From positions 2,942 to 66,941 of the forward strand of contig CASLVD010000002.1 in NCBI GenBank assembly GCA_949398305.1: DNA of 64,000 nt, given 5' to 3'. This document shows positions 1 through 14,400 of the stretch, piece after piece. Each line of letters begins with the position of its first letter. Within the stretch, counting starts at the first letter, position 1. Below the pieces are notes generated by a model, which saw only the letters and a list, made by a program, of their open reading frames with translations, did not search any database and was not told the DNA's origin. The translations under genes and the position numbers were made by a program. The stretch is from an uncultured Candidatus Melainabacteria bacterium. GTDB taxonomy: Bacteria; Cyanobacteriota; Vampirovibrionia; Gastranaerophilales; Gastranaerophilaceae.

Positions 1-1
1 T

Positions 2-184
2 CATAATCAATTTGATAGCACAAAATTAAAAGATTTTATAAAAAATCTGAAAGAAGAATCAAATAAGAAACAAATTATTTTGGTAAGCACCGAAACAAGT
101 ATGCTAGATTATGCAGATCAGATTATTACAGTAAATCAAAAAATTAAAAATCAATCTGAAATCAAAGAAACACAACTTATATAA
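2..184 (+). CDS. C-terminal fragment of a putative ABC/AAA-type ATPase (5' end outside window)
   Basis: Frame is open from the window edge to TAA 182-184. The tail ...NKKQIILVSTETSMLDYADQIITV resembles the post-Walker-B end of SMC/ABC-like ATPases. The next gene starts 13 nt later behind GGAG (187-190). Confidence 0.4.
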   Translation, partial: HNQFDSTKLKDFIKNLKEESNKKQIILVSTETSMLDYADQIITVNQKIKNQSEIKETQLI

Positions 185-196
185 ATGGAGTAAAAT

Positions 197-1294
197 ATGA
201 CAGAAAAAATTGAAAAATTACTGAATGATGTAAACGAAATTACAATTAAACAGAAAACTATAAAAGAAACAATTGCAAAAGAAACAGGTAATAATTTTAA
301 TATATTTGAAATTACACATATTAGTCAAAAAGAAGTCCCAATGTGCAGAATTTTAACCGAACTTTTAGACCCAAACGGTTCTCATGGTCAGAATAAAATA
401 TATTTAAATTTATTTTTCAAAATAGTTTTAAAAAAGGATATTCCATTATCAGAACTAGAGGTTATAAGAGAAGAAGTAATTGAAGGTTGTCGAAGAATTG
501 ACATACTCATAAAAGACAGAACAAAAGATTTTGTAATTCCTATAGAGGTTAAAATAAATGCCTGCGACCAATCGAAACAATTATACGATTATTCAAAGAA
601 AAGAAAACCAAATGACGAAAATCCTAAAGTATATTATCTTACAAAATATGGAACAGAACCATCTATGGGAAGCAGAGAGAGTTTAAAAGATGAAGAAATT
701 GGTCTCATATCTTGGAATGTGGATATATTAAACTGGATAAGAGCTTGCATATCTGATAAAGCAACCATAAACAAAGCACCTATCAGAGAAATTTTATTGC
801 AATTTGAAACAGCAATAGAAGAGTTTACATTACAAACAAAGAAAGGCGAACTAATGGAAATTGAAAATTTATTAAAAACACAAAGCGATATTGAAAATGC
901 TTACAGTATCGCACAGGCACTAAAAAATACTTTATTAAGCCGATTTAAAGAAAAACTTGAAGAAGAACTTATAAAAATAAAACCGCTTGATGATAACAGT
1001 CAAGATGATAATGAATGGAATCTTGGATATAAATTATCTTTATCAGAAGATAAATCCCAGGTAGATGTGGCACGTATCAGCTTGGAAAATAATAGCGTAT
1101 TTAAGCTGATTCAAGTTTTGAATCCCAATGATTTATCTTGGAATAATTTTTCAAAAAACAAATTTAAAGAAAAGGTGTTTTCAATATCCTATGATACAAT
1201 CTTTGAACTTGTAAAAGAAAATAGTTTTAATGATAAAGTTAAAGAATGTGTTGATTGGATAATTGAACAACTTAAAGTAAATGGTCAAATGTAA
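197..1294 (+). CDS. PD-(D/E)XK nuclease family protein
   Basis: 365-aa ORF with SD GGAG. It has an N-terminal box ILTELLDPNGSHGQ and a core RRIDILI...IPIEVK (D...ExK). Confidence 0.6.
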   Translation: MTEKIEKLLNDVNEITIKQKTIKETIAKETGNNFNIFEITHISQKEVPMCRILTELLDPNGSHGQNKIYLNLFFKIVLKKDIPLSELEVIREEVIEGCRRIDILIKDRTKDFVIPIEVKINACDQSKQLYDYSKKRKPNDENPKVYYLTKYGTEPSMGSRESLKDEEIGLISWNVDILNWIRACISDKATINKAPIREILLQFETAIEEFTLQTKKGELMEIENLLKTQSDIENAYSIAQALKNTLLSRFKEKLEEELIKIKPLDDNSQDDNEWNLGYKLSLSEDKSQVDVARISLENNSVFKLIQVLNPNDLSWNNFSKNKFKEKVFSISYDTIFELVKENSFNDKVKECVDWIIEQLKVNGQM

Positions 1295-2925
1295 TGTCCA
1301 AGACTGCAGAATACATTTTAAAAGAATGGGAGAAGTGGAAACATCTTGAAGATATCACCATAGCCTGGAGTTTGGAATTAATTAACAGAAAAACCAATAA
1401 AGAAATATCTGATATTATTAATCTTTCTAAAGCTGAAATTAAAGCTATGGTTGATAATTTCGATATCCAAGAAAATGAAACTCTTGTTTGTGAAATTCAA
1501 AACGGTACAAAACTCACAGAAAGAGAGGAAGAATTTTCCACTCTCATAAAACAGGGTAAAAATATATCAGAAATCTCTAAAACTCTTATGGTAAGCAGGA
1601 CAAGAGTTAAAACCGTTGTTAAAATAATTTTGGCAAAAATTTTAATAGGGCTTTATGATTATTATAATGCCGAATATTCTCATGTATCAGAACTTGCACA
1701 TCCGGTTTTAGAAGGCATGCGATATTACGGTTTTATGTATGGCAAGGCATCGGGTAAAATCGATGGCTATTGGTACGAATTTGATGAAAAAGGCAAGGTT
1801 CATTTAAAAATCAAATGCGATAATTTTGAAAGGGTTGATAAAAATTGCATCATTATTTCAATTGATAAAAAATATGGTCTTATAGACAATTGTGGCAATT
1901 ATTTAATCTCTCCCAAATATGAAGAATTAAAAAAGACATTTGGTGAAAATAGTTCCCTTTTCACGGCAAAATTAAACGGAAAATACGGAGTGATTGATGA
2001 ACATGGGGAAACTATTATTGATTTTAAATATGACAATATGAAGTTTTTTGGAGATAAAGAACATATTTGTGCAAAAAATCAAGGTAAATGGGGTTTGATT
2101 AACGTTAATGAAAATATCATCGTTCCTTTCATTTACGATGAAAGTTTTAATATCTATGCCCTGCCATTTAGAAAAAACGAGGGCTTTATAGTAGAAAAAG
2201 AAGGTAAGGAAGGGGTTATTAATCTTGAGAGTAAAGTTATTATTCCTTTCGAATATGATTGTTTATGCTCAAACTTTTTTGATACTGCAAAAAGTTTGAC
2301 GGTGGCAAAAAAGAATGGTAAAAGAGGTGTTATTAACTCAAAAAACGAAACCCTTATTCCTTTTGAATACGAACATATTGAAATTTTTTCTGATGAAACA
2401 ATGTTTGTACATAATTTTAACAAGGGATATATAATTGATTTTTCAAATAAAAAAGTTTGCGATAAAGACTTTCAATTTATAAACTCCGAGGGAAACGGTG
2501 AATATTTTTGCGCTATGAAAAATGATAAAAGCGGTTTAATTGATAAATTCGGCAATATCAAAATTGATTTTAAATATGATGATTTATTCTTTATAAATAA
2601 AAATCTGCTTGTTGCAAATAAAGATTCAAAAGAAGGAATTATTGATGTTAATGAAAATATTATAGTTCCTTTTAAATATTGGTTTAAGCGTGATAAATGC
2701 TTAGATAAAGATAATACTCTTCCTGCCAGAAGTCGGGTCAATGGCAAATTGAAGTGGGGATTAATTAACCTTCAAAATGAAGTTTTAATTGATTTTAAAT
2801 TTGACATCTTAATGCCTTTTAACGATAGGGAATATACTCTTGCAATAACTCATAATAAATGGATGTATGTAAACAAAAAGGGTGAAATTTTAAAAATCGA
2901 TATTGATAATTATGTCACAAAATGA
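1294..2925 (+). CDS. WG-repeat protein with N-terminal HTH-like segments
   Basis: Start overlaps the upstream stop (TAATG). It contains many tandem WG-type repeats (KYGLID, KYGVID, KWGLIN, KEGVIN, KRGVIN, KSGLID, KEGIID, KWGLIN). The N-terminus has two short HTH-like stretches (ISDIINLSKAEIKAMV, ISEISKTLMVSRTRVKTVV). Confidence 0.75.
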   Translation: MSKTAEYILKEWEKWKHLEDITIAWSLELINRKTNKEISDIINLSKAEIKAMVDNFDIQENETLVCEIQNGTKLTEREEEFSTLIKQGKNISEISKTLMVSRTRVKTVVKIILAKILIGLYDYYNAEYSHVSELAHPVLEGMRYYGFMYGKASGKIDGYWYEFDEKGKVHLKIKCDNFERVDKNCIIISIDKKYGLIDNCGNYLISPKYEELKKTFGENSSLFTAKLNGKYGVIDEHGETIIDFKYDNMKFFGDKEHICAKNQGKWGLINVNENIIVPFIYDESFNIYALPFRKNEGFIVEKEGKEGVINLESKVIIPFEYDCLCSNFFDTAKSLTVAKKNGKRGVINSKNETLIPFEYEHIEIFSDETMFVHNFNKGYIIDFSNKKVCDKDFQFINSEGNGEYFCAMKNDKSGLIDKFGNIKIDFKYDDLFFINKNLLVANKDSKEGIIDVNENIIVPFKYWFKRDKCLDKDNTLPARSRVNGKLKWGLINLQNEVLIDFKFDILMPFNDREYTLAITHNKWMYVNKKGEILKIDIDNYVTK

Positions 2926-2950
2926 CGTATTTTTGTTATAAAATTAAATT

Positions 2951-3925
2951 ATGTCCAGATTAAATAAAGCAGCAGAAATAATAGAACTTGCAATGATGTT
3001 TCAGAATAGTTATTGCGGGTTGTGTATTGATGATATTCAAGAACATTTTGAATGCTCCCGCAGATCAGCAGAACGAATGAAGTCGCTGTTATTTGAAATG
3101 TTTCCTGAAAAAGTTGAAGAAGTTTCAACTTCTGACAAGAAAAAATACTGGCGATTTATTAAAGGAACTGCCAACATGTTAATTTCATTTACCCCTGATG
3201 ATTTTGCGAACCTTGAATACTTAAAAGGGCTATCAAACGATGAAAATAGGCAAAAAGAACTTGATGAATTAATTGCCAAAATAAAAGCTTTAACTCCGCA
3301 AAAAAATGCAATGGCACTGGAAACAGATATTGAAGCAATACTTGAATCCGAAGGTTTTGCAGTACACCAATATTCAAGAGTTAAAGCAGATAAAAAGGTT
3401 TTAGATAAACTCCGGCAAGCTATGCTTTCATTTAAAAAGGTTGAATTTGACTACAATACGGATAAGGGCTTACGCCATGTCGTATTAAACCCGTATGGTA
3501 TAATTATTTCAGATAAATATTATCTTGTTGGATTTAATGAATATGTAGACGATTTAAGACTTTATAAAGTGGATAAACTTCAAAATCTTATTGTAACAGA
3601 TGATTATTTTGAAAAAGATGAAAAATTTTTATTATCAGAATATTGTAATAATTCTTTTTCAATCTATCAGGAAGAACCAATGAGCATCACATTAGAATTT
3701 GACAAATCTGTTGCAGAAGGTGTTTTGAATTATCATTTTCATCCGACACAAAAGATAAAACAACTTGATAACGGTAATATTCAAGTAAAATTCACCTCCG
3801 GTGGTAAACTTGCCATCTGCCATGAACTTTTCAAATGGGGAACAAGTGTTAAAATCAAAAAAACAGCGGAACTTAGAAAGTACTATAAAGATTATTTAAT
3901 AAATATTTTGAATAAACAATTTTGA
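2951..3925 (+). CDS. WYL-domain transcriptional regulator (HTH + WYL + C-terminal extension)
   Basis: 324 aa. It has an N-terminal HTH-like region (IQEHFECSRRSAERMKSLL) and a central WYL-type core (YGIIISDKYYLVGFNEYVDDLRLYKVDKL). Confidence 0.75.
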   Translation: MSRLNKAAEIIELAMMFQNSYCGLCIDDIQEHFECSRRSAERMKSLLFEMFPEKVEEVSTSDKKKYWRFIKGTANMLISFTPDDFANLEYLKGLSNDENRQKELDELIAKIKALTPQKNAMALETDIEAILESEGFAVHQYSRVKADKKVLDKLRQAMLSFKKVEFDYNTDKGLRHVVLNPYGIIISDKYYLVGFNEYVDDLRLYKVDKLQNLIVTDDYFEKDEKFLLSEYCNNSFSIYQEEPMSITLEFDKSVAEGVLNYHFHPTQKIKQLDNGNIQVKFTSGGKLAICHELFKWGTSVKIKKTAELRKYYKDYLINILNKQF

Positions 3926-3950
3926 TATATAATAAGAAAAAAGGAGTTTT

Positions 3951-5477
3951 ATGTCTTTTTTTATAAATTCAAATATGTTGCTAGAAGATTATAAGTATGC
4001 TGCATTAAATATATTGTGGTTGTATGATAATGGAAAAAGAACATTAATTTTTGCATTTATTGAGTTATTTCCCAATGAATATCCCAAACCTATAAATATT
4101 CAAGAAAATAGCCACAGTGTAAAGAAAACAAATAAACGTTTATTTTTTGCAAGAATCATAGATACAGTTGAAAATATTTTAAATTGGTATAGTAATATTT
4201 CGTCCGGGAATGTTTCTCATATGTTTTGGCAAAATAATGAACCTTTTGAATTAATTAACTATGAACAAGAACCTGCTTATCCAGATCTTTTACTATCGAA
4301 TAATCTTCCATTTTTACAAGATTTCGTGGGTTGTGTAAGGTGTCATTTTTTATTTGAAAAAGATTTTCCAGAAGAAATAAGACAATTATGCCTTGATGAA
4401 GAAAACATTAATTGGATTAATGATAACTTTAAGTTTGATTTATCATTATATTCTGAGTACATTGGATCAATATGTTTAGTTGCATATAATCCGTTACTAA
4501 GAAGTGTTAATACAAAACTTATGACAAACACAAATACCAAATCTGAATCTGTGTCATTTGAAATTGAACCAAGATACAATGTTGATATTTCGGATTTAAA
4601 ATTGTTATATATAGAAAAACGGAATCTTGGATATAAATGCTTTAAAGAAGTTGCATTAAATAATCTGTATTTCATAATAGATAACATAGGAGAAGTTGAA
4701 GCTATTGGTTATGCTGTAATTTGTCCAAAAAGAGGACTATTATTATGGGAAGGTTTTCATGGTTTTATGAAAAGTTTATCTTTGAGTATGAATATTGTAA
4801 CAGGTACAAATAAGATCAATGTTCCAACTAAAAATTATGATGGTATCGAAGAAACATATGAAACTTCAAGATATAGTAGTGAAACAATTACAATTGGAGA
4901 AAACAATAAAACAAAAACAGAAACATTAGCAATTAAATTATTAAAATCAAAAAGAACAAGGGAGCAAAAAAATATAGCTCAAAATACTCAAAAACTATTT
5001 TATGAAAACCCAAAAGAGGCAACAGCATTTATTAGAAGTATTATTGCCAAAGCTCAAACAAGAATTACTATAATCGATCCCTATATTACGACCAGAGAAT
5101 TATTTAAATTTGTTTTATCGGTAAATCCAAGCGTAAAAACTACAATAATAACCTCTTCTTTGGTATTAAAAGGCGGCAAAAATAAAAATCAAGCCAAAAC
5201 TTTGTTGAAAAATATTGATAATGTGTCAAAGAATTATCATATTGAAGCAATGGTAATGCTTGGAAGAGAACCAGCTTTTCATGATAGATTTATATTTATA
5301 GATGAAGAAGTTTGGATTAGTGGAAATTCGTTGGCTGATATTGGCAAAAGAGCAAGTATTCTGATTAAATCATCAGCACCAAAAGAAATTCAAAATATTT
5401 ATTATAGCATTATAAATGACAAGCAAAAAATAACAACATTAAAAGAATGGATTGAGAACCATGAAACCGCAAATTAA
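3951..5477 (+). CDS. Hypothetical protein with C-terminal PLD-fold domain (HKD-like HxRxxxxD...SGNS motif)
   Basis: 508-aa ORF with SD AAAGGAG upstream. The motif FHDRFIFIDEEVWISGNSL is encoded at 5280-5330. I do not recognise the N-terminal ~370 aa. Confidence 0.6.
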   Translation: MSFFINSNMLLEDYKYAALNILWLYDNGKRTLIFAFIELFPNEYPKPINIQENSHSVKKTNKRLFFARIIDTVENILNWYSNISSGNVSHMFWQNNEPFELINYEQEPAYPDLLLSNNLPFLQDFVGCVRCHFLFEKDFPEEIRQLCLDEENINWINDNFKFDLSLYSEYIGSICLVAYNPLLRSVNTKLMTNTNTKSESVSFEIEPRYNVDISDLKLLYIEKRNLGYKCFKEVALNNLYFIIDNIGEVEAIGYAVICPKRGLLLWEGFHGFMKSLSLSMNIVTGTNKINVPTKNYDGIEETYETSRYSSETITIGENNKTKTETLAIKLLKSKRTREQKNIAQNTQKLFYENPKEATAFIRSIIAKAQTRITIIDPYITTRELFKFVLSVNPSVKTTIITSSLVLKGGKNKNQAKTLLKNIDNVSKNYHIEAMVMLGREPAFHDRFIFIDEEVWISGNSLADIGKRASILIKSSAPKEIQNIYYSIINDKQKITTLKEWIENHETAN

Positions 5478-6036
5478 TAATGTTATCCAAGTACCAATTC
5501 CGGAAAAATTTGCGAATAAAGAACCCAAGTTATATTTTTTGTCCGCAAATTATGAATCTGGGAAACGTGACTCTAAAGATATTGAAATTGTAAATGGTTG
5601 CTGTTTTGATAGAAATGATTTATATAGTAGTATTTTTTGGAACAATTTTGAAAAAGCTGAATATATAATTATAATTGATAAATTTTTTATAAATGAAGAT
5701 CTGGATAAAGTTATAAAAATTATGCAAAAAAATAAAAACAAAATACCAACATTTAAAATGTTTAAGCTTTATACAGAAAATGTAGATAATATTAAAAATT
5801 CTCTCAATGAAATTAAACGTATTCTTGCTGACAAATTTGCAGTATTTGAAATAAAGCACAAATACATTCATGATAGATTTGCAATATTGGATAATGAACT
5901 ATTTCATTTTGGATGTACTGTCGGAGGAAAAACCAGCGAAGGCTTTAGCGCATTTAGTTGCGGATGGGATGCTAATAAGATATCCATGCTTATAAAACAA
6001 ATTGAAAATTCTAAATTTTCAGAGAGGACTTTATGA
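5452..6036 (+). CDS. Small PLD-fold protein (single HxRxxxxD motif)
   Basis: 194 aa. It overlaps the upstream gene by 26 nt. The motif IHDRFAILDNELFHFGCTVGG is encoded from 5869. Confidence 0.55.
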   Translation: MRTMKPQINNVIQVPIPEKFANKEPKLYFLSANYESGKRDSKDIEIVNGCCFDRNDLYSSIFWNNFEKAEYIIIIDKFFINEDLDKVIKIMQKNKNKIPTFKMFKLYTENVDNIKNSLNEIKRILADKFAVFEIKHKYIHDRFAILDNELFHFGCTVGGKTSEGFSAFSCGWDANKISMLIKQIENSKFSERTL

Positions 6037-7817
6037 TAGAAACAGAAATGCAAACACCATATATGAAAGAACAATTAAAGATATATCAAACTACTGTAAG
6101 TGAATATTTGCAACTTGATGATAAAACCAAAACTTTTTTTTATGAGTTTTGTAATTTGGCATTTCAAAAAAAATACTCATATAATGAATTTATTAAAAAA
6201 TCTGACGAATATACATTGAGCGATAATATAAAATGGTACATATTGGGGAATTTTTGTGTTGATAAAGTTTTACAAACCGATTGCCAATTCATTGAGTTTT
6301 TTGAATGGTTTAATCGCTATAGTCATCTGAATGCATATCTTTTTTATAGCAAAATATTGACTGAAAAATTTCAAAATAAAACATTATTAAAAAAATATAC
6401 TGATAAACTTGATGGTATTATTGATTATGCTAACCAAACTTTTTTGAATTATATCAGAGAAGATGAAAAGCCCGCATTCAAAGAATTTTTGAAAAAGAAT
6501 GCAGAAAATTCAGATATTTTAAATATTCTAAATGACAGAACTCGTATGCATTATAGATATATATCAAATGGTGTATTATATTTTGCACTAACTCCAATAT
6601 TAAATTTAGATATTAAAAAAGTGGTAAAAATACTATCTAAAATAAATTGCATTTTTTTGTTAGAAGATTTTTTAACTATTAATACAATCGAATACGATAT
6701 AGAACTGATTTGCAAGATTTTATCTCTGGCACCAAAAATTACAAATAATAGTGAAAAATGGAACAATAAAGCTATTTTATTACCATTACTTACAATAATA
6801 TTAAATAATAATTTATTACATGTATATGAATTATATAAAAATACCACACATGAAGTTGATGATATATTAAAAAAACACATTGAATTATTCATTAAACAAT
6901 TAAAGCAAAGACCTGATTGTAATTTTTTCATCCAAAAATGGTTATTGCATCTTGTTTCAATCCTAGATTCGCGTTCTGAAACTTACAAAAAAATAACACA
7001 AATGACAATACAAATAATCGGATTAGAAATTGTAGAACAAGACGAAAGTTTTAGTAAAAATTTCTTTGAAAATGAATATTTGAGTAATAAACGTAAAGAA
7101 CTATTACTTGCCTTAATTTATACAACTGACTCTATGAATTTTCCTCAAGAATATTTGAAATTATTTAGAGATTACATATTAGATTTATCAAATAAAATAT
7201 ATATTTTATCCGATAAGTCTTTTATAAAAACTGAACATTATTTATTATCGCAATTGTTTATTGAAATTGATAAACCTGCTGATGAATGGCAAAAAATATG
7301 GAATGCTTTATATATTGAACGACAAAAAGCTATGCATTCAAATTATGAGGACAATATGCATAACATATCACACTCGCAGTATTTAATTTTAACGGGTATA
7401 GCTGTTATTGAATATTTTATTTCAAAAAAACAAGTAAATTCTGCAACTACTTTTTTTGAAAATATATGGAATGCGTTAATGGAACTTTATTTAACAATGA
7501 GATACTTTTTGCATGAAGATTTTTTGCATAATATGATTGTAAGATATATTATACTCAAAAATCTAATAGGTATTGATTTCCAATCAGAAATAAATATGGT
7601 TAAGGATAATCCTGAACTAATTTCGAATATTATTTTAAATCTAAAGAATAACAACTGTGATATAACTTTTATTTCTAAAAATGATTCAATATTACATAGC
7701 CTAAATACATGTATAACTCAATGGAAAATATCCGATAAAAAACATATAAAATTTAAAGAAAACTATTATTTAGAACTAGAAAATATTTACAACAAATATT
7801 GTTTGAAGAAATTTTAA
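6033..7817 (+). CDS. Hypothetical large alpha-helical protein
   Basis: 594-aa uninterrupted ORF. Its start overlaps the upstream stop (ATGA at 6033-6036). I recognise no motif. Confidence 0.6.
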   Translation: MIETEMQTPYMKEQLKIYQTTVSEYLQLDDKTKTFFYEFCNLAFQKKYSYNEFIKKSDEYTLSDNIKWYILGNFCVDKVLQTDCQFIEFFEWFNRYSHLNAYLFYSKILTEKFQNKTLLKKYTDKLDGIIDYANQTFLNYIREDEKPAFKEFLKKNAENSDILNILNDRTRMHYRYISNGVLYFALTPILNLDIKKVVKILSKINCIFLLEDFLTINTIEYDIELICKILSLAPKITNNSEKWNNKAILLPLLTIILNNNLLHVYELYKNTTHEVDDILKKHIELFIKQLKQRPDCNFFIQKWLLHLVSILDSRSETYKKITQMTIQIIGLEIVEQDESFSKNFFENEYLSNKRKELLLALIYTTDSMNFPQEYLKLFRDYILDLSNKIYILSDKSFIKTEHYLLSQLFIEIDKPADEWQKIWNALYIERQKAMHSNYEDNMHNISHSQYLILTGIAVIEYFISKKQVNSATTFFENIWNALMELYLTMRYFLHEDFLHNMIVRYIILKNLIGIDFQSEINMVKDNPELISNIILNLKNNNCDITFISKNDSILHSLNTCITQWKISDKKHIKFKENYYLELENIYNKYCLKKF

Positions 7818-7851
7818 TAAACTTGCATTGTATCTTTTTAACCTAAAAATT

Positions 7852-8003
7852 ACCTGTTACCTTCCTGTTAATATCCTGTTATTTATAAATTCTAAAATTC
7901 AAATAAGTCTGATATAACTAGTTAATATACTAACTGTATAGCAAAATAACAGGTTAAAAAATTTTATCAGGTTAACAGGTTGATATAGTCAGGGAGCCTG
8001 TTG
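7852..8003. repeat. Array of (A/T)CCTGTTA / TAACAGGT octamer sites
   Basis: Three direct copies sit at 7852-7859, 7863-7870 and 7874-7881 with an exact 11-bp period. Three inverted copies sit at 7947-7954, 7965-7972 (1 mismatch) and 7973-7980. One more direct copy, GCCTGTTG, is at 7996-8003. Confidence 0.6.
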
Positions 8004-8028
8004 CTCTCTGGACTGTTCGCTCCAGTAA

Positions 8029-8060
8029 CAAAAAAGGACTACCTTAGGTAGTCCTTTTTT
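8029..8060. terminator. Bidirectional rho-independent terminator
   Basis: Stem GGACTACC (8036-8043) / GGTAGTCC (8047-8054) with loop TTA. An A-tract lies on one side and a T-tract on the other. Confidence 0.7.
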
Positions 8061-8320
8061 GTTGCTGTGGTTGAGAAGTAGAGAACCCACACAAGGCATA
8101 AGCCTTGTCATTGGGTTCGAGCGGATTTACGGACGGACTGAGCGCAGCAAGTTCGGGTAGCGAACAGATTGAGTCGACAGGAGCAAAGCTCCGAAGACGA
8201 AATTCTGAGAGCATGAAGTAAATCCAAGACACTCCCACCGTCTCCACCATTAAAATACTCAAGGCTTATGACAGTCTCTTTTTTAGTACCAAATTTCCCA
8301 CACCACGCGGGCTTCCGCCA
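8061..8320. ncRNA. Unassigned GC-rich structured element (candidate ncRNA or att scar) with tmRNA-like 3' tail
   Basis: GC-rich island in an AT-rich intergenic region. Nested helices: GAACCCA 8083-8089/TGGGTTC 8112-8118, ACAAGGC 8091-8097/GCCTTGT 8102-8108, GGATTTAC 8123-8130/GTAAATCC 8218-8225, GGAGC 8180-8184/GCTCC 8188-8192. ACTCCCACCGTCTCCACCA lies at 8231-8249 on the + strand. Confidence 0.35.
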
Positions 8321-8437: not shown

Positions 8438-9547
8438 TTAATCCAACTTTCTTTTAAATGTCCAACCGGCAAGTGATAATGTAATTATCGCTATAATGAT
8501 TAATGGGATTAAATTGACAAAAACATCCTGAAATCCCATACCTTTTAAGAAAATTCCGCGTGTCAAAACCATAAAAAATCTGACAGGATTTAACCACGTT
8601 AAATATTGCCAGAACAGTGGCATATCTTCTATTGGGGAGATAAAACCTGATAACAATACTGCCGGCATTTGAAAAGTTATTACACCCAAAATCGCCTGTT
8701 GCTGCGTTTTTGAAATTGACGATATGAAAAGTCCGACACCTACAATAGACAAAAGGGAAATAAAAACCGCAAGTAAAAATAACCAAATTGACCCCGCAAA
8801 AGGAACTTTAAAGCAGGTTATAACAATTAAAGTCATAATAAGTGTCAATATAAGAGCAATTATAAGCGGCGGAATGGTTTTCCCGAGCAAAATTTCAAAA
8901 GATGATAACGGACTTACTATAAGCTGGTCAAAAGTTCCCATTTCACGTTCTCTTGCAATAGAAAGAGCTGTCAAAAGCAGAGTTATTACAAGTGCAAGCA
9001 TCGCAATTATTACAGTTAAAATATACCACCGATATTCTAAATTGGGATTAAACCAGTTTCTTATAACAGGATTTATTGTAGCACCTTGAACTCCTGTAAT
9101 TTCTGAATTATAGCTGTTTATAATCTGCGTTGCATAACCTCCTGCAATTGCCGCGGAATTTGTCTGCCTGCCGTCAGCCACAATAAGTATATTGACAGGT
9201 TTTTGAGATTTTACGGATGAGGCAAAATCGTTATTAATGTAAATTCCGATTTGAACTTTTTGGTTATCAATTTTTTCTTTGAATTCTTTTTCGTCACTTA
9301 CGTAGTAAAATTTTCTAAATCTTGGCGAATGTTCAAAGCTTGAAATAAGTTCACGTGATTCAACAGAATTTGAGCGATCAATTAAAGCGACATCAATATT
9401 TTTAACTTCCATGGTAATTGCGTTTGCAAAAACAAAAAGCTGCAACAGAGGCATTGCAATAATTATCCCGCGAGATTTCGGATCTTTCCAGATTGTAATA
9501 AATTCTTTTTTTATAAGTGCCAAAATACGGCGCAAGCTCTCTATCAT
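8438..9547 (-). CDS. ABC-2 type transporter permease (YbhR/YhhJ-like)
   Basis: 369 aa. TM1 is followed by a large extracytoplasmic loop and a C-terminal TM bundle. It overlaps the upstream permease gene by 4 nt. Confidence 0.8.
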   Translation of the reverse strand: MIESLRRILALIKKEFITIWKDPKSRGIIIAMPLLQLFVFANAITMEVKNIDVALIDRSNSVESRELISSFEHSPRFRKFYYVSDEKEFKEKIDNQKVQIGIYINNDFASSVKSQKPVNILIVADGRQTNSAAIAGGYATQIINSYNSEITGVQGATINPVIRNWFNPNLEYRWYILTVIIAMLALVITLLLTALSIAREREMGTFDQLIVSPLSSFEILLGKTIPPLIIALILTLIMTLIVITCFKVPFAGSIWLFLLAVFISLLSIVGVGLFISSISKTQQQAILGVITFQMPAVLLSGFISPIEDMPLFWQYLTWLNPVRFFMVLTRGIFLKGMGFQDVFVNLIPLIIIAIITLSLAGWTFKRKLD

Positions 9548-10653
9548 CCTTTCAACCTCATATCCGTATTTTTATAAACCGCAATGAACAAAATCATTCC
9601 AAGAACGGTTAAGAATACTGCATTTACAAAAACAAGCTTCCATACAGTACCTGCCATAAACTCACTTTCAATAAAAGTTATAAAATATCTTGGCGGAAGA
9701 ATCATAGTTAAGTATTGAAAAAACGTAGGCATAGAATTTATCGGAAACATAAGCCCTGAAAGCAATAATGCAGGTAAAAAACCTATCCCTAAAGATACCT
9801 GACTTGCAAGAAATTGGTTTTTAAGTTTTGAAGAAATTGTTAATCCAACCCCGAGCAGTGTAAATAAAAACAGTGCACTAACTGCAAAAAGGACTAAATA
9901 ATTTCCTCTGAATGGGATTTTGAATACCGTGACACAAAGAAAAACATTAAACATCATGGAAATCATTCCAAGCGCAAAGTATGGAATATATTTTCCGAGA
10001 ACTATATCAATTTTTCTAACCTGCGTACTTAAAATCGCTTCCATAGTACCGCGTTCCCATTCGCGTGCAACCACAAGCGCGGTGAGTAAAATACCGATAA
10101 GTGTCATTGTAACAGAAATTGACCCCGGCAAAATAAAATAGTGGCTATTTAAATCCTGATTATACCAGATACGAAGCTCGGGATTTATAACAACGGGATT
10201 TGCCAAACGCCTGAATTTACTTGTATTCAGCCAGCTGTTTGCAATAGAAGTTGAGTAACTTTGAACATAATTTGCGGTATTAACTTCCGACCCGTCAGTG
10301 ATTATCAACAAATCACCTGATTGTCCGCGAGATAATTTTGTTGAAAAATCATTTGGAATAATAACTGCCCCTTTAATTTTTGAACGAGTTATGGCTTCCG
10401 TTAATTCTTGTTCGTTATCAAAAACAATAGAATCAACGTATTTGCTGTGTCCAAAAGATTTAACTAATGTTGAAATCTCAGAATTGGCATCATCATTTTT
10501 TATTCCGAGAGTAACTTTAACAGAATCAAGATTAACTCCATACATATAAATCAAAATTGACAATAATGGTAAAACAAACGCGATTATAATACTTGACGGG
10601 TCGCGAATTATCTGTAAAAATTCTTTTTTAATTAAGGCTGTTAATATTTTCAT
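9544..10653 (-). CDS. ABC-2 type transporter permease (YbhS-like)
   Basis: 369 aa with the same architecture as its neighbour. It has 4-nt overlaps on both sides. Confidence 0.8.
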   Translation of the reverse strand: MKILTALIKKEFLQIIRDPSSIIIAFVLPLLSILIYMYGVNLDSVKVTLGIKNDDANSEISTLVKSFGHSKYVDSIVFDNEQELTEAITRSKIKGAVIIPNDFSTKLSRGQSGDLLIITDGSEVNTANYVQSYSTSIANSWLNTSKFRRLANPVVINPELRIWYNQDLNSHYFILPGSISVTMTLIGILLTALVVAREWERGTMEAILSTQVRKIDIVLGKYIPYFALGMISMMFNVFLCVTVFKIPFRGNYLVLFAVSALFLFTLLGVGLTISSKLKNQFLASQVSLGIGFLPALLLSGLMFPINSMPTFFQYLTMILPPRYFITFIESEFMAGTVWKLVFVNAVFLTVLGMILFIAVYKNTDMRLKG

Positions 10654-12170
10654 TTTCCTGACTCCTTAATCAAAGTTATAAAAGCATCTTCCATTGTTGA
10701 TGCGTGAGCTTTTTGCTTTAATTCATCGGGCGTTCCGACAGCAATAGCTTCACCTTTATAAAAAAGGCTTATACGGTCGCAAAATTCGGCTTCATCCATA
10801 AAGTGTGTAGTAACAAGAATTGTAACTCCTTTTTTAGCAAGAGAAGTAATATGATTCCAGAATTCTCGTCTTGCAATAACGTCAACTCCTGATGTCGGCT
10901 CATCCAAAAATAAAATCGGCGGATTGTGGATTAGAGCACAAGCTAATGATAATCTCTGCTTAAACCCGAGAGGCAAATCTTCTGATTTTTGATTTTGAAC
11001 ATTTTTGAAATCAAAAACTTCAATGATTTCATCAACACGTTTTTTACGGTCAAGCAAGTTAATACCGTAAGCTGCGGCAAAAAATTGCAAATTTTGTCTT
11101 ACTGTTAGTTGTCCGTATAGCGAAAATTTTTGCGCCATATATCCAAGATTTGAACGAGCTTTTGCAGGGTTTTTCAAAATATCAATCCCCATAATTCTTG
11201 CAGTACCTGATGTTGGTTTAGTAAGTCCGCACATCATCTTGAAAGAAGTTGATTTTCCTGCGCCATTTGGACCTAAAAGTCCAAAAATTTCTCCACGTTT
11301 TATACAAAATGAATTGTTTTTTACAGCATAGAAATTCCCGTATTTTTTCTCTAAGTTATCTGCTTCAACAGAACATTCTGAATTATAATCAATCGGTGTA
11401 TAGTTTTGCGCAATTTTTGACGGTTCTTTTTTATATCCGCCCATAAGTTCGATAACTTTTTCCTCAAATTCCTGTGGTGTTGATGCCAAATCATGCGGTT
11501 TTCCATTATAAATAACTTTACCCCTATCTAAAACAACTGCAGTGTCAAAACTGTGAGCTTCATCAAGGTAAGCTGTTGACCACAAAACAGTTGTTTCAGG
11601 TGTTATCATTTCACGAACCATCTTCATCAAATCCCTGCGCGAAATCGGATCAACTCCGACTGATGGTTCATCAAGCAAAAGAAATTCCGGTGTCCCAAGA
11701 AGCGTACATGCAAGCCCGAGTTTTTGTTTCATTCCGCCTGACAATGCTCCTGCAAGTCTGTCCTGAAATGGTGCAAGAGAGGTAAATTCAAGCATTTTAT
11801 CAAATATTGACCCCTCACCCCGGCCCTCTCCCGCAAGGGGCGAGGGAGCATTTATCCCTTTCAAATCAGCATAAAGTTTCAAATTTTCGATAACTGTTAA
11901 ATCCTCATACAAACCGAATTTTTGGGGCATATAACCGATTTTTGAAACAAGTTCTGGTTTTTGAGTGAACGGATTCAATCCCAAAACTTCTACATTGCCG
12001 CTATCAGGTAGGAGCAGACCGATAATCAAGCGGATTAAAGTTGTCTTTCCTGCTCCGTCAGCTCCGATTAAACCTGTGATTTTACCTTTTTCTATTCCAA
12101 GTGAAAGGTTATCAATCGCAGTTAAGTTGTTAAATGTTTTTGTAAGATTTGTAATTGTAACCGTGTTCAT
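10650..12170 (-). CDS. ABC transporter ATP-binding protein with tandem NBDs (YbhF-like)
   Basis: Walker A GADGAGKT and GPNGAGKS, signatures LSGGMKQK and LPLGFKQR, Walker B LLLDEP and LFLDEP. NBD1 carries the in-frame insert APSPLAGEGRGEGS. Confidence 0.9.
   Translation of the reverse strand: MNTVTITNLTKTFNNLTAIDNLSLGIEKGKITGLIGADGAGKTTLIRLIIGLLLPDSGNVEVLGLNPFTQKPELVSKIGYMPQKFGLYEDLTVIENLKLYADLKGINAPSPLAGEGRGEGSIFDKMLEFTSLAPFQDRLAGALSGGMKQKLGLACTLLGTPEFLLLDEPSVGVDPISRRDLMKMVREMITPETTVLWSTAYLDEAHSFDTAVVLDRGKVIYNGKPHDLASTPQEFEEKVIELMGGYKKEPSKIAQNYTPIDYNSECSVEADNLEKKYGNFYAVKNNSFCIKRGEIFGLLGPNGAGKSTSFKMMCGLTKPTSGTARIMGIDILKNPAKARSNLGYMAQKFSLYGQLTVRQNLQFFAAAYGINLLDRKKRVDEIIEVFDFKNVQNQKSEDLPLGFKQRLSLACALIHNPPILFLDEPTSGVDVIARREFWNHITSLAKKGVTILVTTHFMDEAEFCDRISLFYKGEAIAVGTPDELKQKAHASTMEDAFITLIKESGK
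11801..11850. repeat. GC-rich 50-nt dispersed element, copy 1 (inside the ABC ATPase gene)
   Basis: Sequence caaatattgacccctcaccccggccctctcccgcaaggggcgagggagca. It is 48/50 identical to the reverse complement of 12176-12225 and contains an imperfect hairpin CCCTCTCCC/GGGGCGAGGG. Confidence 0.85.
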
Positions 12171-13063
12171 GGAGCTGCTCCCTCGCCCCTTGTGGGAGAG
12201 GGCTGGGGTGAGGGGTCAATATTTGCCCCTAAATCCACTTTAATAGTTACAGGCATGCCCTGTCTTAAATATTCATCAATATCGTCAATATAAACACGAA
12301 TTCTATATACCAAATCTGTTCTCAAGTCTGTTGATTGAACAGTTTTTGGGGTGAATTCAGCAACAGGTGAAATAAATCCGATTTGACCTTTGTAAGTTCT
12401 TTTTTGACCTGTTGAAGGGTTTGTACTATCCGTATAAACATTTACCTTCTGACCATATTTAATGTTTCCTAAATCTGTTTCGTTGATGTAAGCTCTGACC
12501 CAGACGGGTTTGTTTTTGGAGATTGAATATACAATTTGTCCTTTGTTAACCGTTGCTCCTGGTTCTTGAACTCTTACCATTACAATTCCGTCATCAGGTG
12601 CATAGATTTTTGTATAATCTAACTGGTTTTGTGCATAATTTTTTGCGGCAACAGAGGCATTATAATCAGCCACACTCTTATCACGTGTATTTTTTAAGGT
12701 GTCATATTCCTGTTTTGAAATAGTATCGTCTTCAACAAGCGGAGCATTGCGGTCAAACTTTTCCACGCTGTCATTTTTTATAGCGAGTGTTTTTTCAACT
12801 TCAGCTGTTGTTTTTTCAAGATTGGATTTGTAATCTTTCGCATCTAAAATTGCAATAAGTTCACCTTTTTTTACACTGTCACCTTCTTCTTTAAGCATTT
12901 TTTCAATAATTCCCGGCACTTGAAAACTCAAATCAACCTGACGGATTTCAATATTACCGTAAAGCGTAAGTTGGTTCGGATTTCCTTTTTCACGTGTTAG
13001 AAAAAATACCGTAATTCCAATAATTATTAATATTAAAATAAGTGCGATTATTTTTTTCTTCAT
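12167..13063 (-). CDS. HlyD-family membrane fusion protein (YbhG-like)
   Basis: 298 aa with an N-terminal TM anchor and a coiled-coil/barrel-sandwich pattern. Its stop overlaps the ATPase start (ATGA). Confidence 0.85.
   Translation of the reverse strand: MKKKIIALILILIIIGITVFFLTREKGNPNQLTLYGNIEIRQVDLSFQVPGIIEKMLKEEGDSVKKGELIAILDAKDYKSNLEKTTAEVEKTLAIKNDSVEKFDRNAPLVEDDTISKQEYDTLKNTRDKSVADYNASVAAKNYAQNQLDYTKIYAPDDGIVMVRVQEPGATVNKGQIVYSISKNKPVWVRAYINETDLGNIKYGQKVNVYTDSTNPSTGQKRTYKGQIGFISPVAEFTPKTVQSTDLRTDLVYRIRVYIDDIDEYLRQGMPVTIKVDLGANIDPSPQPSPTRGEGAAP
12176..12225. repeat. GC-rich 50-nt dispersed element, copy 2 (inverted; forms the 3' end of the HlyD gene)
   Basis: Its reverse complement matches copy 1 with two G-to-A differences. 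It encodes the HlyD C-terminal tail DPSPQPSPTRGEGAAP. Confidence 0.85.
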
Positions 13064-14400
13064 AATTTGCCTCCAACAGCTTTGTATAGAGTGAAATAAT
13101 TTACCAATCTTTGATTTTTTGTTTGAATTGCTTCTTTTTGAACGTCAATAAATTTTGATAAATCATTCAAATATTCCGGTGCAGAAATTGTTCCGCGGGC
13201 ATATTTTTTGCGAGAATTTTCCAAATTCTTGTATTCGTATTGAACTTTTGCAAGTGTGTTTTTATCGACTGTTGTATTATGTTTTATCAAACAAAGTGCG
13301 GTATTTACTTCTTTTACGGCTTCCAAATCTGTTTGTCTGTATTTTTCAAACAGTTCCTCATATTTTGCTTTTTGAATTTTTAGGTTTGCAATCTTTCTGC
13401 CGCCCGTAAAAATATCCTGACTTGCTCCGGCAAGTATTGCAGCCAAAGAAGATTCCCAAGAGAAAAATGTTCCCGGCGCTATTGTATTAAAAATCCATAA
13501 TCCTGTTATATTAAACCTTGGCAAGAATTCTTTTCTTGCAACACGAATATCAATTTTTGCTTTTTCTAGCATTTTTTCAGCCTGCATAACATCAGGTCTT
13601 GAAAAAATAACGTCTGATTGTATTTCATCAGGAATTGAATTTTGATATTCCAATGTTTCAAATTTTCCGCGGTTTAAATCAGAAATACAATCCGCAGATT
13701 TCCCTGTTAATACTGCAAGTTGCATTAACAAAATTTCTTGCTCTTTTTGAAATTTTTCAAGTTCGTTTTTTGCTGTTTCAAGATTTTTCGCAGAAGTATT
13801 GAGTTGTGATGTGCTAATTGTTCCATGTTCAAATTTTTTAGTATCTCGTCTTAGAATTTCTGTATAAATACCAACTTTTTCCTGTGCAAGTATAATTAGT
13901 TTGTCATATTCTAGGATATTTGTGTAAACAGTTGCAACATCTGCTAAAAGAGATAAATACACCGCTTTTTCTTCAAATTTACTTGCTTCATAAACCTTTT
14001 TTGTTCCCTTTGTTTTATCTCTGTTTTTTAATAGCAAATCTGCTTCATAATTTGCCATAAACGGTAATATAAAAGCGTTATTTTGCAATTCAAAATTATC
14101 TAATTGAGGAACATGAACTCCAAGATAATTTGCCGCAACATTGAATGATGGCAATTCCTTAGAAAAAGAATATTTGACCTGCTGTCTGTATTGTTCAACT
14201 CTGTAAGTAGCCTGTCTAGCACTATGATTATTATCAATTGCCTCATTAATATAATAATAAAGACATTCATCATTAAATTTTGCAAAAAATTCAGGATTAA
14301 GTTCGCTTCTTTCGATTGCAAAGGCAGATTGTGAGATAAGCATTAACAAAAATATCAGAACAATTCTTTTAAACAATGCCAGCCTCCTTGATAAGTGCAT
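13060..14400 (-). CDS. TolC-family outer membrane efflux protein
   Basis: 446 aa with a signal peptide (LISQSAFA) and a two-repeat OMF architecture. It overlaps the HlyD gene by 4 nt. Confidence 0.8.
   Translation of the reverse strand: MHLSRRLALFKRIVLIFLLMLISQSAFAIERSELNPEFFAKFNDECLYYYINEAIDNNHSARQATYRVEQYRQQVKYSFSKELPSFNVAANYLGVHVPQLDNFELQNNAFILPFMANYEADLLLKNRDKTKGTKKVYEASKFEEKAVYLSLLADVATVYTNILEYDKLIILAQEKVGIYTEILRRDTKKFEHGTISTSQLNTSAKNLETAKNELEKFQKEQEILLMQLAVLTGKSADCISDLNRGKFETLEYQNSIPDEIQSDVIFSRPDVMQAEKMLEKAKIDIRVARKEFLPRFNITGLWIFNTIAPGTFFSWESSLAAILAGASQDIFTGGRKIANLKIQKAKYEELFEKYRQTDLEAVKEVNTALCLIKHNTTVDKNTLAKVQYEYKNLENSRKKYARGTISAPEYLNDLSKFIDVQKEAIQTKNQRLVNYFTLYKAVGGKL

Follow-up and report, generated by a model that had tools for sequence, protein, structure and literature searches.

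The subject of this analysis is a compact set of three genes, here called A, B and C, in the genome of an uncultured Candidatus Melainabacteria bacterium (GCA_949398305.1, contig CASLVD010000002.1), of which a stretch of 64,000 nucleotides (nt), referred to throughout as the window, was studied. An earlier reading of this DNA, hereafter the original prediction, had described four co-directional genes, and the open reading frame (ORF) list of the window agrees with it. They lie on the plus strand and comprise a gene for a transcription regulator with a winged helix-turn-helix, a WYL and a WCX domain (wHTH-WYL-WCX; 2951-3925, 324 amino acids (aa)), which ends 25 nt upstream of A; gene A itself (3951-5477, 508 aa), of the VPA1262-N-terminal-domain family; gene B (5452-6036, 194 aa), whose product is a single-domain protein; and gene C (6033-7817, 594 aa), which encodes an all-alpha solenoid (helical-repeat) protein. 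A strong ribosome-binding site, AAGGAG, stands 7 nt ahead of the ATG of A, and A, B and C are translationally coupled. At 6033-6036 the ATG of C lies over the TGA of B in an ATGA overlap, read directly from the junction just as had been proposed, and B overlaps the end of A with either of its two possible starts. The overlap of 26 nt originally given for A and B requires the TTG at 5452 (194 aa); the ATG at 5461, which the gene caller picked on a 99 %-identical contig, gives a protein of 191 aa and an overlap of 17 nt. The cassette is 3.9 kb long and, as had been noted, AT-rich, with a GC content of 25.2 % for the trio as opposed to 32-34 % in the remainder of the window (24-30 % over positions 1-8000; 34-38 % in the adjacent ABC-transporter genes). 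No hydrophobic segment of membrane-spanning length is predicted in A, B or C, and a scan of the sequence for promoters and terminators stayed at chance level (59 sites, with 58.2 expected).

Protein A passes the NCBIfam model NF040700, "VPA1262 family N-terminal domain", with 181.7 bits at a cut-off of 80, its residues 63-473 aligning to profile positions 2-459 of 478, and is a member of that family; the A proteins of trios from other phyla score 108-380 bits. A preprint dated 3 August 2026 (10.64898/2026.08.01.741415) gave the VPA1262 family the name "Juno", so the initial statement that the gene combination matched no named system did not survive, and A can be called Juno-like. The AlphaFold2 (AF2) model of A, with a predicted local distance difference test score (pLDDT) of 82.5, begins with a beta-rich domain (aa 1-315, nt 3951-4895), from which a linker helix leads to an alpha/beta domain at the C-terminus that resembles phospholipase D (PLD; aa 347-502, nt 4989-5456). 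Within the latter lies, at 5280-5303, the sequence HDRFIFID (H444-D-R446-x4-D451), followed by G458-N-S460, an HKD-like half-site. The PLD fold foreseen for the C-terminal domain of the 508-aa protein is backed by a match to the PADLOC profile PDC-S05 (1.5e-16) and by a Foldseek comparison of the AF2 model, whose matches (E values 5.7e-7 to 4e-4) include TrmBL2 (5.7e-7), H. pylori NucT (3e-6; TM score 0.63 to the target), FAM83 (1e-5), PssA (phosphatidylserine synthase) and PLD2. Searches of the PDB by sequence, with A alone and with a profile, returned no real relatives.

The 194-aa product of B had been thought to carry the same motif, and it does: HDRFAILD at 5869-5892 (H140-D-R-x4-D147, followed by HFGCTVGG), to be compared with the HDRFIFID of A. 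PDC-S05 matches B at 7e-9, hhalign joins B to the A family with an E value of 6.7e-5 across the motif region, and A proteins are matched at their C-termini by the B-family profile (1e-5 to 1e-9). Judged by sequence, B and the PLD-like domain of A are paralogues; a single-sequence search of the PDB with B found no real relatives. In 17 closer homologues of A, residues H444, D445, R446, D451, W455, G458 and S460 are invariant, and in 14 diverse homologues, down to 13-22 % identity, the same residues are invariant with the exception of D451, which is nearly so. Of 33 A ORFs, 31 contain the motif and the remaining two are N-terminal fragments, and among complete B proteins H-D-R is found in 22 of 22 and the trailing D in 21 of 22. 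A Gly-rich turn follows H-D-R-x4-D in both proteins; in full, A reads H-D-R-x4-D-x6-G-N-S and B reads H-D-R-x4-D-x6-G-x-T. What had been called an HKD-like motif in both proteins is conserved, but as a variant with Arg in the position of Lys and not as the canonical H-x-K-x4-D...G-S-x-N; since it reads H-x-R rather than H-x-K, catalysis is something that we infer.

C is a large alpha-solenoid that occurs essentially only in the context of the trio. Its AF2 model is an all-helical solenoid of 34 helices (pLDDT 88.1; predicted template modelling score, pTM, 0.85), and no family match was obtained in Pfam, PADLOC, NCBIfam or PHROGs, nor in the PDB by single-sequence or profile search, in keeping with the earlier description of a 594-aa all-helical protein with no recognisable motif. 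The best Foldseek matches in the PDB and BFVD are generic HEAT, karyopherin and Sel1 repeats (E values of at least 1.5e-3, TM scores 0.2-0.3); a karyopherin or other specific identity was rejected, as the structural matches are only to generic repeat proteins. From 1.84 billion representative proteins a profile search recovered 48 relatives of C and no more, the longer of them ~480-715 aa and the rest shorter and probably partial. Because none of these exceeds 715 aa, the idea of C as a fusion partner was also given up. A metagenome scan with C returned nothing.

Loci for comparison were gathered through contigs encoding homologues, a tblastn search of plasmids, a scan of genome contigs and a scan of metagenomes, and all ORFs in the collected loci were scored with profiles of A, B and C. 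The genome-contig scan, made with the closer A alignment, reached only proteins with a near-exact motif (13 loci), and the diverse A alignment, run against the protein database, returned the same 17 proteins, its candidate list being saturated by low-complexity words. Wherever A is full-length and of this clade, and sufficient DNA follows it, B comes next and then C, overlapping or a few nt apart. This arrangement is found at ~20 distinct loci (the window, L001, L003, L007-L009, L015-L021, L028, L030, L032-L034, L037 and L040-L042), with identities in A from 99 % down to 22 %, and the conservation of the trio as a unit, a check that had been set beforehand, is borne out across them. The hosts represent three phyla, Cyanobacteriota, Bacillota and Pseudomonadota: there are metagenome-assembled genomes (MAGs) of gut Melainabacteria/Gastranaerophilales, a MAG of Selenomonas ruminantium, and alpha-, beta- and gammaproteobacterial plasmids of Azospirillum, Burkholderia glumae and Klebsiella variicola. 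The window and the Melainabacteria locus L014 are 98 % identical over 8 kb. In two loci (L022 and L036) the gene after A and B encodes a soluble protein of similar size, one that the C profile misses. There is also a two-gene form, on four alphaproteobacterial plasmids (L010-L013, from Rhizobium tumorigenes, Methylorubrum extorquens CM4, Bradyrhizobium septentrionale and Gluconobacter sphaericus), in which the gene for an NF040700 protein is immediately followed by that for an unannotated partner of ~490-660 aa, without B. Three of these four partners are 594-659 aa long, and their hhalign match to C is weak and collinear, with a probability of 72 %.

For the most part the trio is found among defence or prophage genes, beside integrases or on plasmids. 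Its neighbours include AbiE (L001, L042), SIR2 (SIR2/Dsr1-like; L002, L016, L017, L041), Abi_2/PD-T4-5 together with a TIR-TPR protein (L018), a type II restriction-modification pair with an integrase, a resolvase and an AbiJ-like ATPase (L040), an integrase, a resolvase and a UvrD helicase (L003), ParB-methylase, DUF5681 and terminase genes (L033, L006, L041) and, in the window, the candidate defence gene PDC-S26. Insertion sequence elements and recombinases adjoin the trio on three plasmids, a prophage-like packaging module adjoins the cassette in the window clade, L033 and L041, and the GC content of the trio is below that of both flanks in 13 of 14 loci. The mobility of the island in the window is also evident at its right end (7853-8025). 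There, L014, L006 and L015 cease to be homologous at 8024-8026, and the flanks beyond are unrelated, which marks the position as a genuine end of a mobile element, downstream of the block where an "att-like scar" had been noted. The last 170 nt of the island contain a set of three direct CCTGTTA heptamers (7853-7881) and, facing it, a set of three TAACAGG heptamers (7947-7983), after which comes a GC-rich conserved terminus, GGGAGCCTGTTGCT...GGACTGTTCGCTCCA, ending at ~8024, and a near-perfect hairpin of 22 nt (8023-8067) spans the junction. The left end of the island lies outside the window.

The place of the WYL gene in this arrangement had to be revised. Its product has the wHTH-WYL-WCX architecture (Pfam WYL 38.1 bits, cut-off 21.8; WCX 24.3 bits, cut-off 23.9; PADLOC WYL 1e-22), and its residues 3-305 align to Caulobacter DriD over its full length (PDB 8TP8/8TPK; E 2e-31). 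DriD is its closest solved relative and the only one of BrxR, CapW and DriD matched in the PDB at E <= 0.01; BrxR and CapW share the three-domain architecture and the placement 5' of defence genes, but remained below that search threshold. DriD is a transcription activator that senses single-stranded DNA (ssDNA), and CapW senses ssDNA as well (PMC11662680, PMC10853764). A weak inverted repeat (16 nt, 81 %) is present upstream of the WYL start, at 2907-2946. The regulator and the trio occur together in two island lineages only, the window clade (L006, L014, L015) and L041, and in the latter the order is terminase, helix-turn-helix (HTH) gene, two PDDEXK_4 genes, WYL, a small ORF, a SIR2 gene of 1199 aa and then A-B-C. 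The "WYL-regulator-led operon" of the original prediction is not upheld by two lineages, in one of which a SIR2 gene intervenes. Since the WYL gene, at the front of a prophage-like cargo region, keeps company with PDDEXK_4 genes, it falls outside the cassette; it is an accessory of the island and not a component of the system, and it may instead be part of the PDDEXK_4 module. Upstream of it in the window, on the same strand, are a PD-(D/E)XK_4 nuclease gene (197-1294; PADLOC candidate PDC-S26, 8e-56, 188 bits) and, overlapping it by one base, a gene for a WG-repeat protein with a LuxR-type HTH (1294-2925; 543 aa, six WG beta-repeats). A second nuclease/ATPase module had been placed here, of which the nuclease is present; the small ATPase-like ORF found upstream in the relatives is cut off by the start of the window.

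Beyond the island some further features were observed. Just past its right end, at 8081-8246 on the plus strand, is a GC-rich structured RNA motif of ~165 nt, with copies in L016 (3766-3939), L028 (4318-4465) and L021 (4711-4890), and without a match to Rfam 15 or to a tRNA or tmRNA. A covariance model from two copies recovers the other two with 110 and 44 bits; in the four-sequence alignment fitted to the model, 98 % of cells pair, and compensatory changes affect 22 of 45 pairs, compared with at most 2 in slid controls. The motif lies 0.26-4 kb from the trio, on the same strand, in four of four loci, and could be a new non-coding RNA that acts as a hot spot for island integration in Gastranaerophilales. 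The core genes beside the island (8438-14400, minus strand) encode two ABC-2 permeases, a double ABC ATPase, an HlyD-like adaptor and a TolC-like outer-membrane protein, and from their translations look like an ordinary efflux operon. Two inverted, GC-rich palindromic elements of ~50 nt, 96 % identical, lie in frame within genes of this region, at 11801-11850 and 12176-12225. Within its first ATPase domain the ABC protein (10650-12170, minus strand) gains "SPLAGEGRGEGS" from one copy, and the HlyD-like protein (12167-13063, minus strand) owes its C-terminal "PSPQPSPTRGEGA" to the other, both resembling in-frame insertions of Rickettsia-type palindromic elements.

What, then, is the cassette for? 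Single Juno genes from V. parahaemolyticus and P. agglomerans were reported to reduce plaques of T4, Bas35, Bas45 and lambda-vir more than 100-fold in E. coli (10.64898/2026.08.01.741415). Our view is that A-B-C is most likely an undescribed multi-gene relative of this known phage-defence family. We give a probability of roughly 55 % to the trio being a mobile, self-contained cassette directed against phages or other invaders, related to Juno and including a catalytic effector of the PLD type; that it has a defence or anti-invader role of some kind we regard as likely. The original prediction, too, had proposed a defence system, and that proposal retains its co-conserved genes, low GC content and defence or mobile context, with the addition of an A family that has an anti-phage member; it loses the leading WYL regulator, the comparison to DrmC and its claim to namelessness.

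The manner in which such a cassette might operate can be outlined from what has been established for other members of the PLD superfamily, namely that their active sites are assembled from two HKD half-sites, as in the dimers of Nuc, BfiI and NucT. A, B and C would form one complex. With two half-sites needed for a PLD centre, the PLD-like domain of A would be expected to pair with B, or each of the two with itself, giving a phosphodiesterase centre, and because PLD domains with a single half-site are typically nucleases its substrate would probably be nucleic acid. The beta-rich domain of A, the solenoid C or both might sense infection or restrain the enzyme, and in the island of the window the WYL regulator, by its likeness to DriD and CapW, would probably raise expression upon the appearance of ssDNA from damage or infection. 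A more particular version, which we offer as a tentative one, is of a three-component immune system in which A and B each contribute a half-site to a heteromeric phosphodiesterase of the PLD type, C senses or gates, and the single-gene Juno and the two-gene forms are fused or reduced versions of the same device. We know of no PLD enzyme for which such an arrangement of half-sites on two different polypeptides has been described.

A number of observations weigh against a catalytic, Juno-related defence cassette, some of them by themselves and some by lending themselves to a different explanation. The pairing of A with B and the role of C as a sensor are purely what we infer. No match to A was found in the scans of phage genomes and viral contigs, and at one locus (L034) the flanks of the trio are plain housekeeping genes. 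Moreover, the comparison to Juno was indirect, made through the NCBIfam models NF040700 (478 positions, of domain type) and NF040699 (1026 positions, cut-off 325 bits). The A of the window has no match to the full-length NF040699 at E <= 0.1, and does not belong to that model; related A proteins from other trios match it with 25-47 bits, at positions 345-554 only, where the PLD region lies. Neither C nor any of the partner proteins matches NF040699, even at E <= 10. As C and the partners are unlike the C-terminal half of Juno, and A is unlike the full model, the Juno phenotype can be transferred to the trio by partial homology only.

Other such points concern the active site. The Pfam model PLDc_2 scores A at 21.1 bits, under its cut-off of 27; Arg occupies the place where catalytic PLDs carry Lys, in every member of the family; and the top structural match of A, TrmBL2, is a non-catalytic PLD-like domain. 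With FAM83 (1e-5) also among the top Foldseek matches and 20 bits for A from Pfam MIT_C, they could be taken to mean that the PLD-like domains are non-catalytic binding modules, comparable to those of TrmB/TrmBL2, FAM83 or MITD1, that bind a ligand, nucleic acid or membrane. The trio might still be a defence or addiction module in that case, the effector being a recruited host factor or an activity in the N-terminal domain of A. We consider this unlikely on account of the residues that have been kept. Even among A proteins with identities as low as 13-22 % there is little or no variation at His, Asp, Arg, Asp and Gly-x-Ser, and every complete B has retained H-D-R, a pattern typical of an active site; PLD folds without catalysis have usually lost the His. 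Arg should be chemically able to fill the phosphate-binding role of Lys, and the catalytic side is represented among the significant structural matches as well, by NucT, PssA and PLD2.

A second alternative arises from the company that some trios keep. In four of ~18 distinct contexts the surroundings are polysaccharide or teichoic-acid-type clusters, with the trio homologues co-directional and tightly spaced: GT2, a cytidylyltransferase, GT8 and an ABC exporter in L019; a TagF-like glycerophosphotransferase, FkbM and TylF methyltransferases and UDP-galactopyranose mutase in L020; DegT, a Wzx-like flippase and GT2 in L022; and an EpsG-like protein in L036. Gaps are of a few nt, and no more than 1-3 nt separate the trio from the gene before it in L019 and L020. 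(A PADLOC "mad3" match of a neighbour in L019 was rejected as evidence of defence, the protein being an ordinary ABC exporter by Pfam.) The predicted defence-island context, while usual in its defence and mobile neighbours, does not extend to these four loci, whose setting is one that the original prediction had named beforehand as speaking against it. Together with phosphatidylserine synthase among the structural matches, they would suit an envelope enzyme complex, in which a phosphotransferase or hydrolase of the PLD type acts on lipid- or glycopolymer-linked phosphodiesters in surface-polysaccharide loci. Trios ~40 % identical to these, however, adjoin restriction-modification, Abi, SIR2, TIR, integrase or terminase genes, or lie on plasmids, with no glycan genes nearby; A, B and C have no predicted membrane segment; and Juno relatives protect E. 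coli when expressed alone. In L020 and L022 the GC content of the trio is below that of the flanking glycan genes, suggesting insertion into a variable locus. An envelope function for the family is, on balance, quite improbable. Least probable of all is a selfish module for addiction or competition, made up of a toxin with its regulators or excluding plasmids or prophages for the benefit of the element, since, for all that the cassette always sits on islands, prophage ends or plasmids and beside a packaging module in the window clade, L033 and L041, such a module would overlap mechanistically with defence, no conserved small antitoxin-like gene accompanies the trio, 3.9 kb is large, and the relatives protect against phage.

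Several known systems can be set beside the favoured reading, a defence cassette with a PLD-type effector. The C-terminal domain of A is shared with PDC-S05, one member of which was reported to be protective (10.1101/2024.09.26.614923), and is of the same H-D-R type: within profile positions 156-302 the score is 58.5 bits for A and 33.3 bits for B. In A the match covers positions 168-302 only, and A is not a full-length member. True members are ~300 aa long, have a different N-terminal half, score 412-435 bits on positions 2-302 (values taken from L023, L024 and L039) and lack B and C. Six collected loci (L023-L026, L038 and L039, from Clostridiales and other MAGs) encode such full-length PDC-S05 members, of ~300-340 aa, without B or C partners. 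Nuc, NucT, BfiI and Zucchini are alike in that each small PLD-fold domain brings a single half-site and an active site takes two domains, and differ in their canonical H-x-K-x4-D...G-S-x-N and an identity of 13-14 %. DISARM (DrmC) and Mokosh (MkoB/MkoC) are multi-gene defence systems that likewise include PLD-fold proteins; the trio has neither a helicase nor a methylase partner, and C is unrelated to any PADLOC model. DISARM was rejected because no Drm model in PADLOC matches any of the six island proteins, and Mokosh because MkoC gives 21.4 bits on its C-terminal 180 positions only, with no helicase present. The analogy to DrmC originally drawn gave way in the PADLOC check to a domain-level match to PDC-S05 and a weak one to MkoC.

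No paper on the A-B-C trio was found within the literature searched, and the closest comparison is that with Juno itself. In VPaI-6, VPA1262 has Septu (VPA1260-1261) on one side and the type VI secretion system effector VPA1263 on the other and so stands alone, to go by an order deduced from locus numbers; a 2006 paper has a product of 1851 nt amplified by polymerase chain reaction with VPA1262-specific primers. Searches for full-length VPA1262 by tblastn of plasmids, with A and with the Klebsiella A, gave proteins of the N-domain type only, and blastn for VPA1262 in E. coli genomes gave nothing. The two systems have in common the NF040700 module of ~480 residues, with its beta-rich part and its PLD-like H-D-R domain, and their residence in mobile "armoury" islands. 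They differ in that Juno is a single protein of ~1026 aa, while here a 508-aa A has two obligate partner genes, and the trio is not a single-gene system. The N-terminal module of Juno, in other words, is also found as a shorter protein that has two obligate partners, and plasmids, prophage-like islands and integrative elements spread this form across Cyanobacteriota, Bacillota and Pseudomonadota; one of those partners, C, is a rare protein family with a confidently predicted fold and no known relatives. There is a caution in this for annotation, as genes labelled "VPA1262 family N-terminal domain-containing protein" are usually the first of a two- or three-gene unit. There is also an opportunity: Juno is newly reported and comes as yet without a mechanism, and in A-B-C nature has provided a split version of it, with the candidate functions on separate polypeptides, where they should be easier to dissect by genetics and biochemistry.

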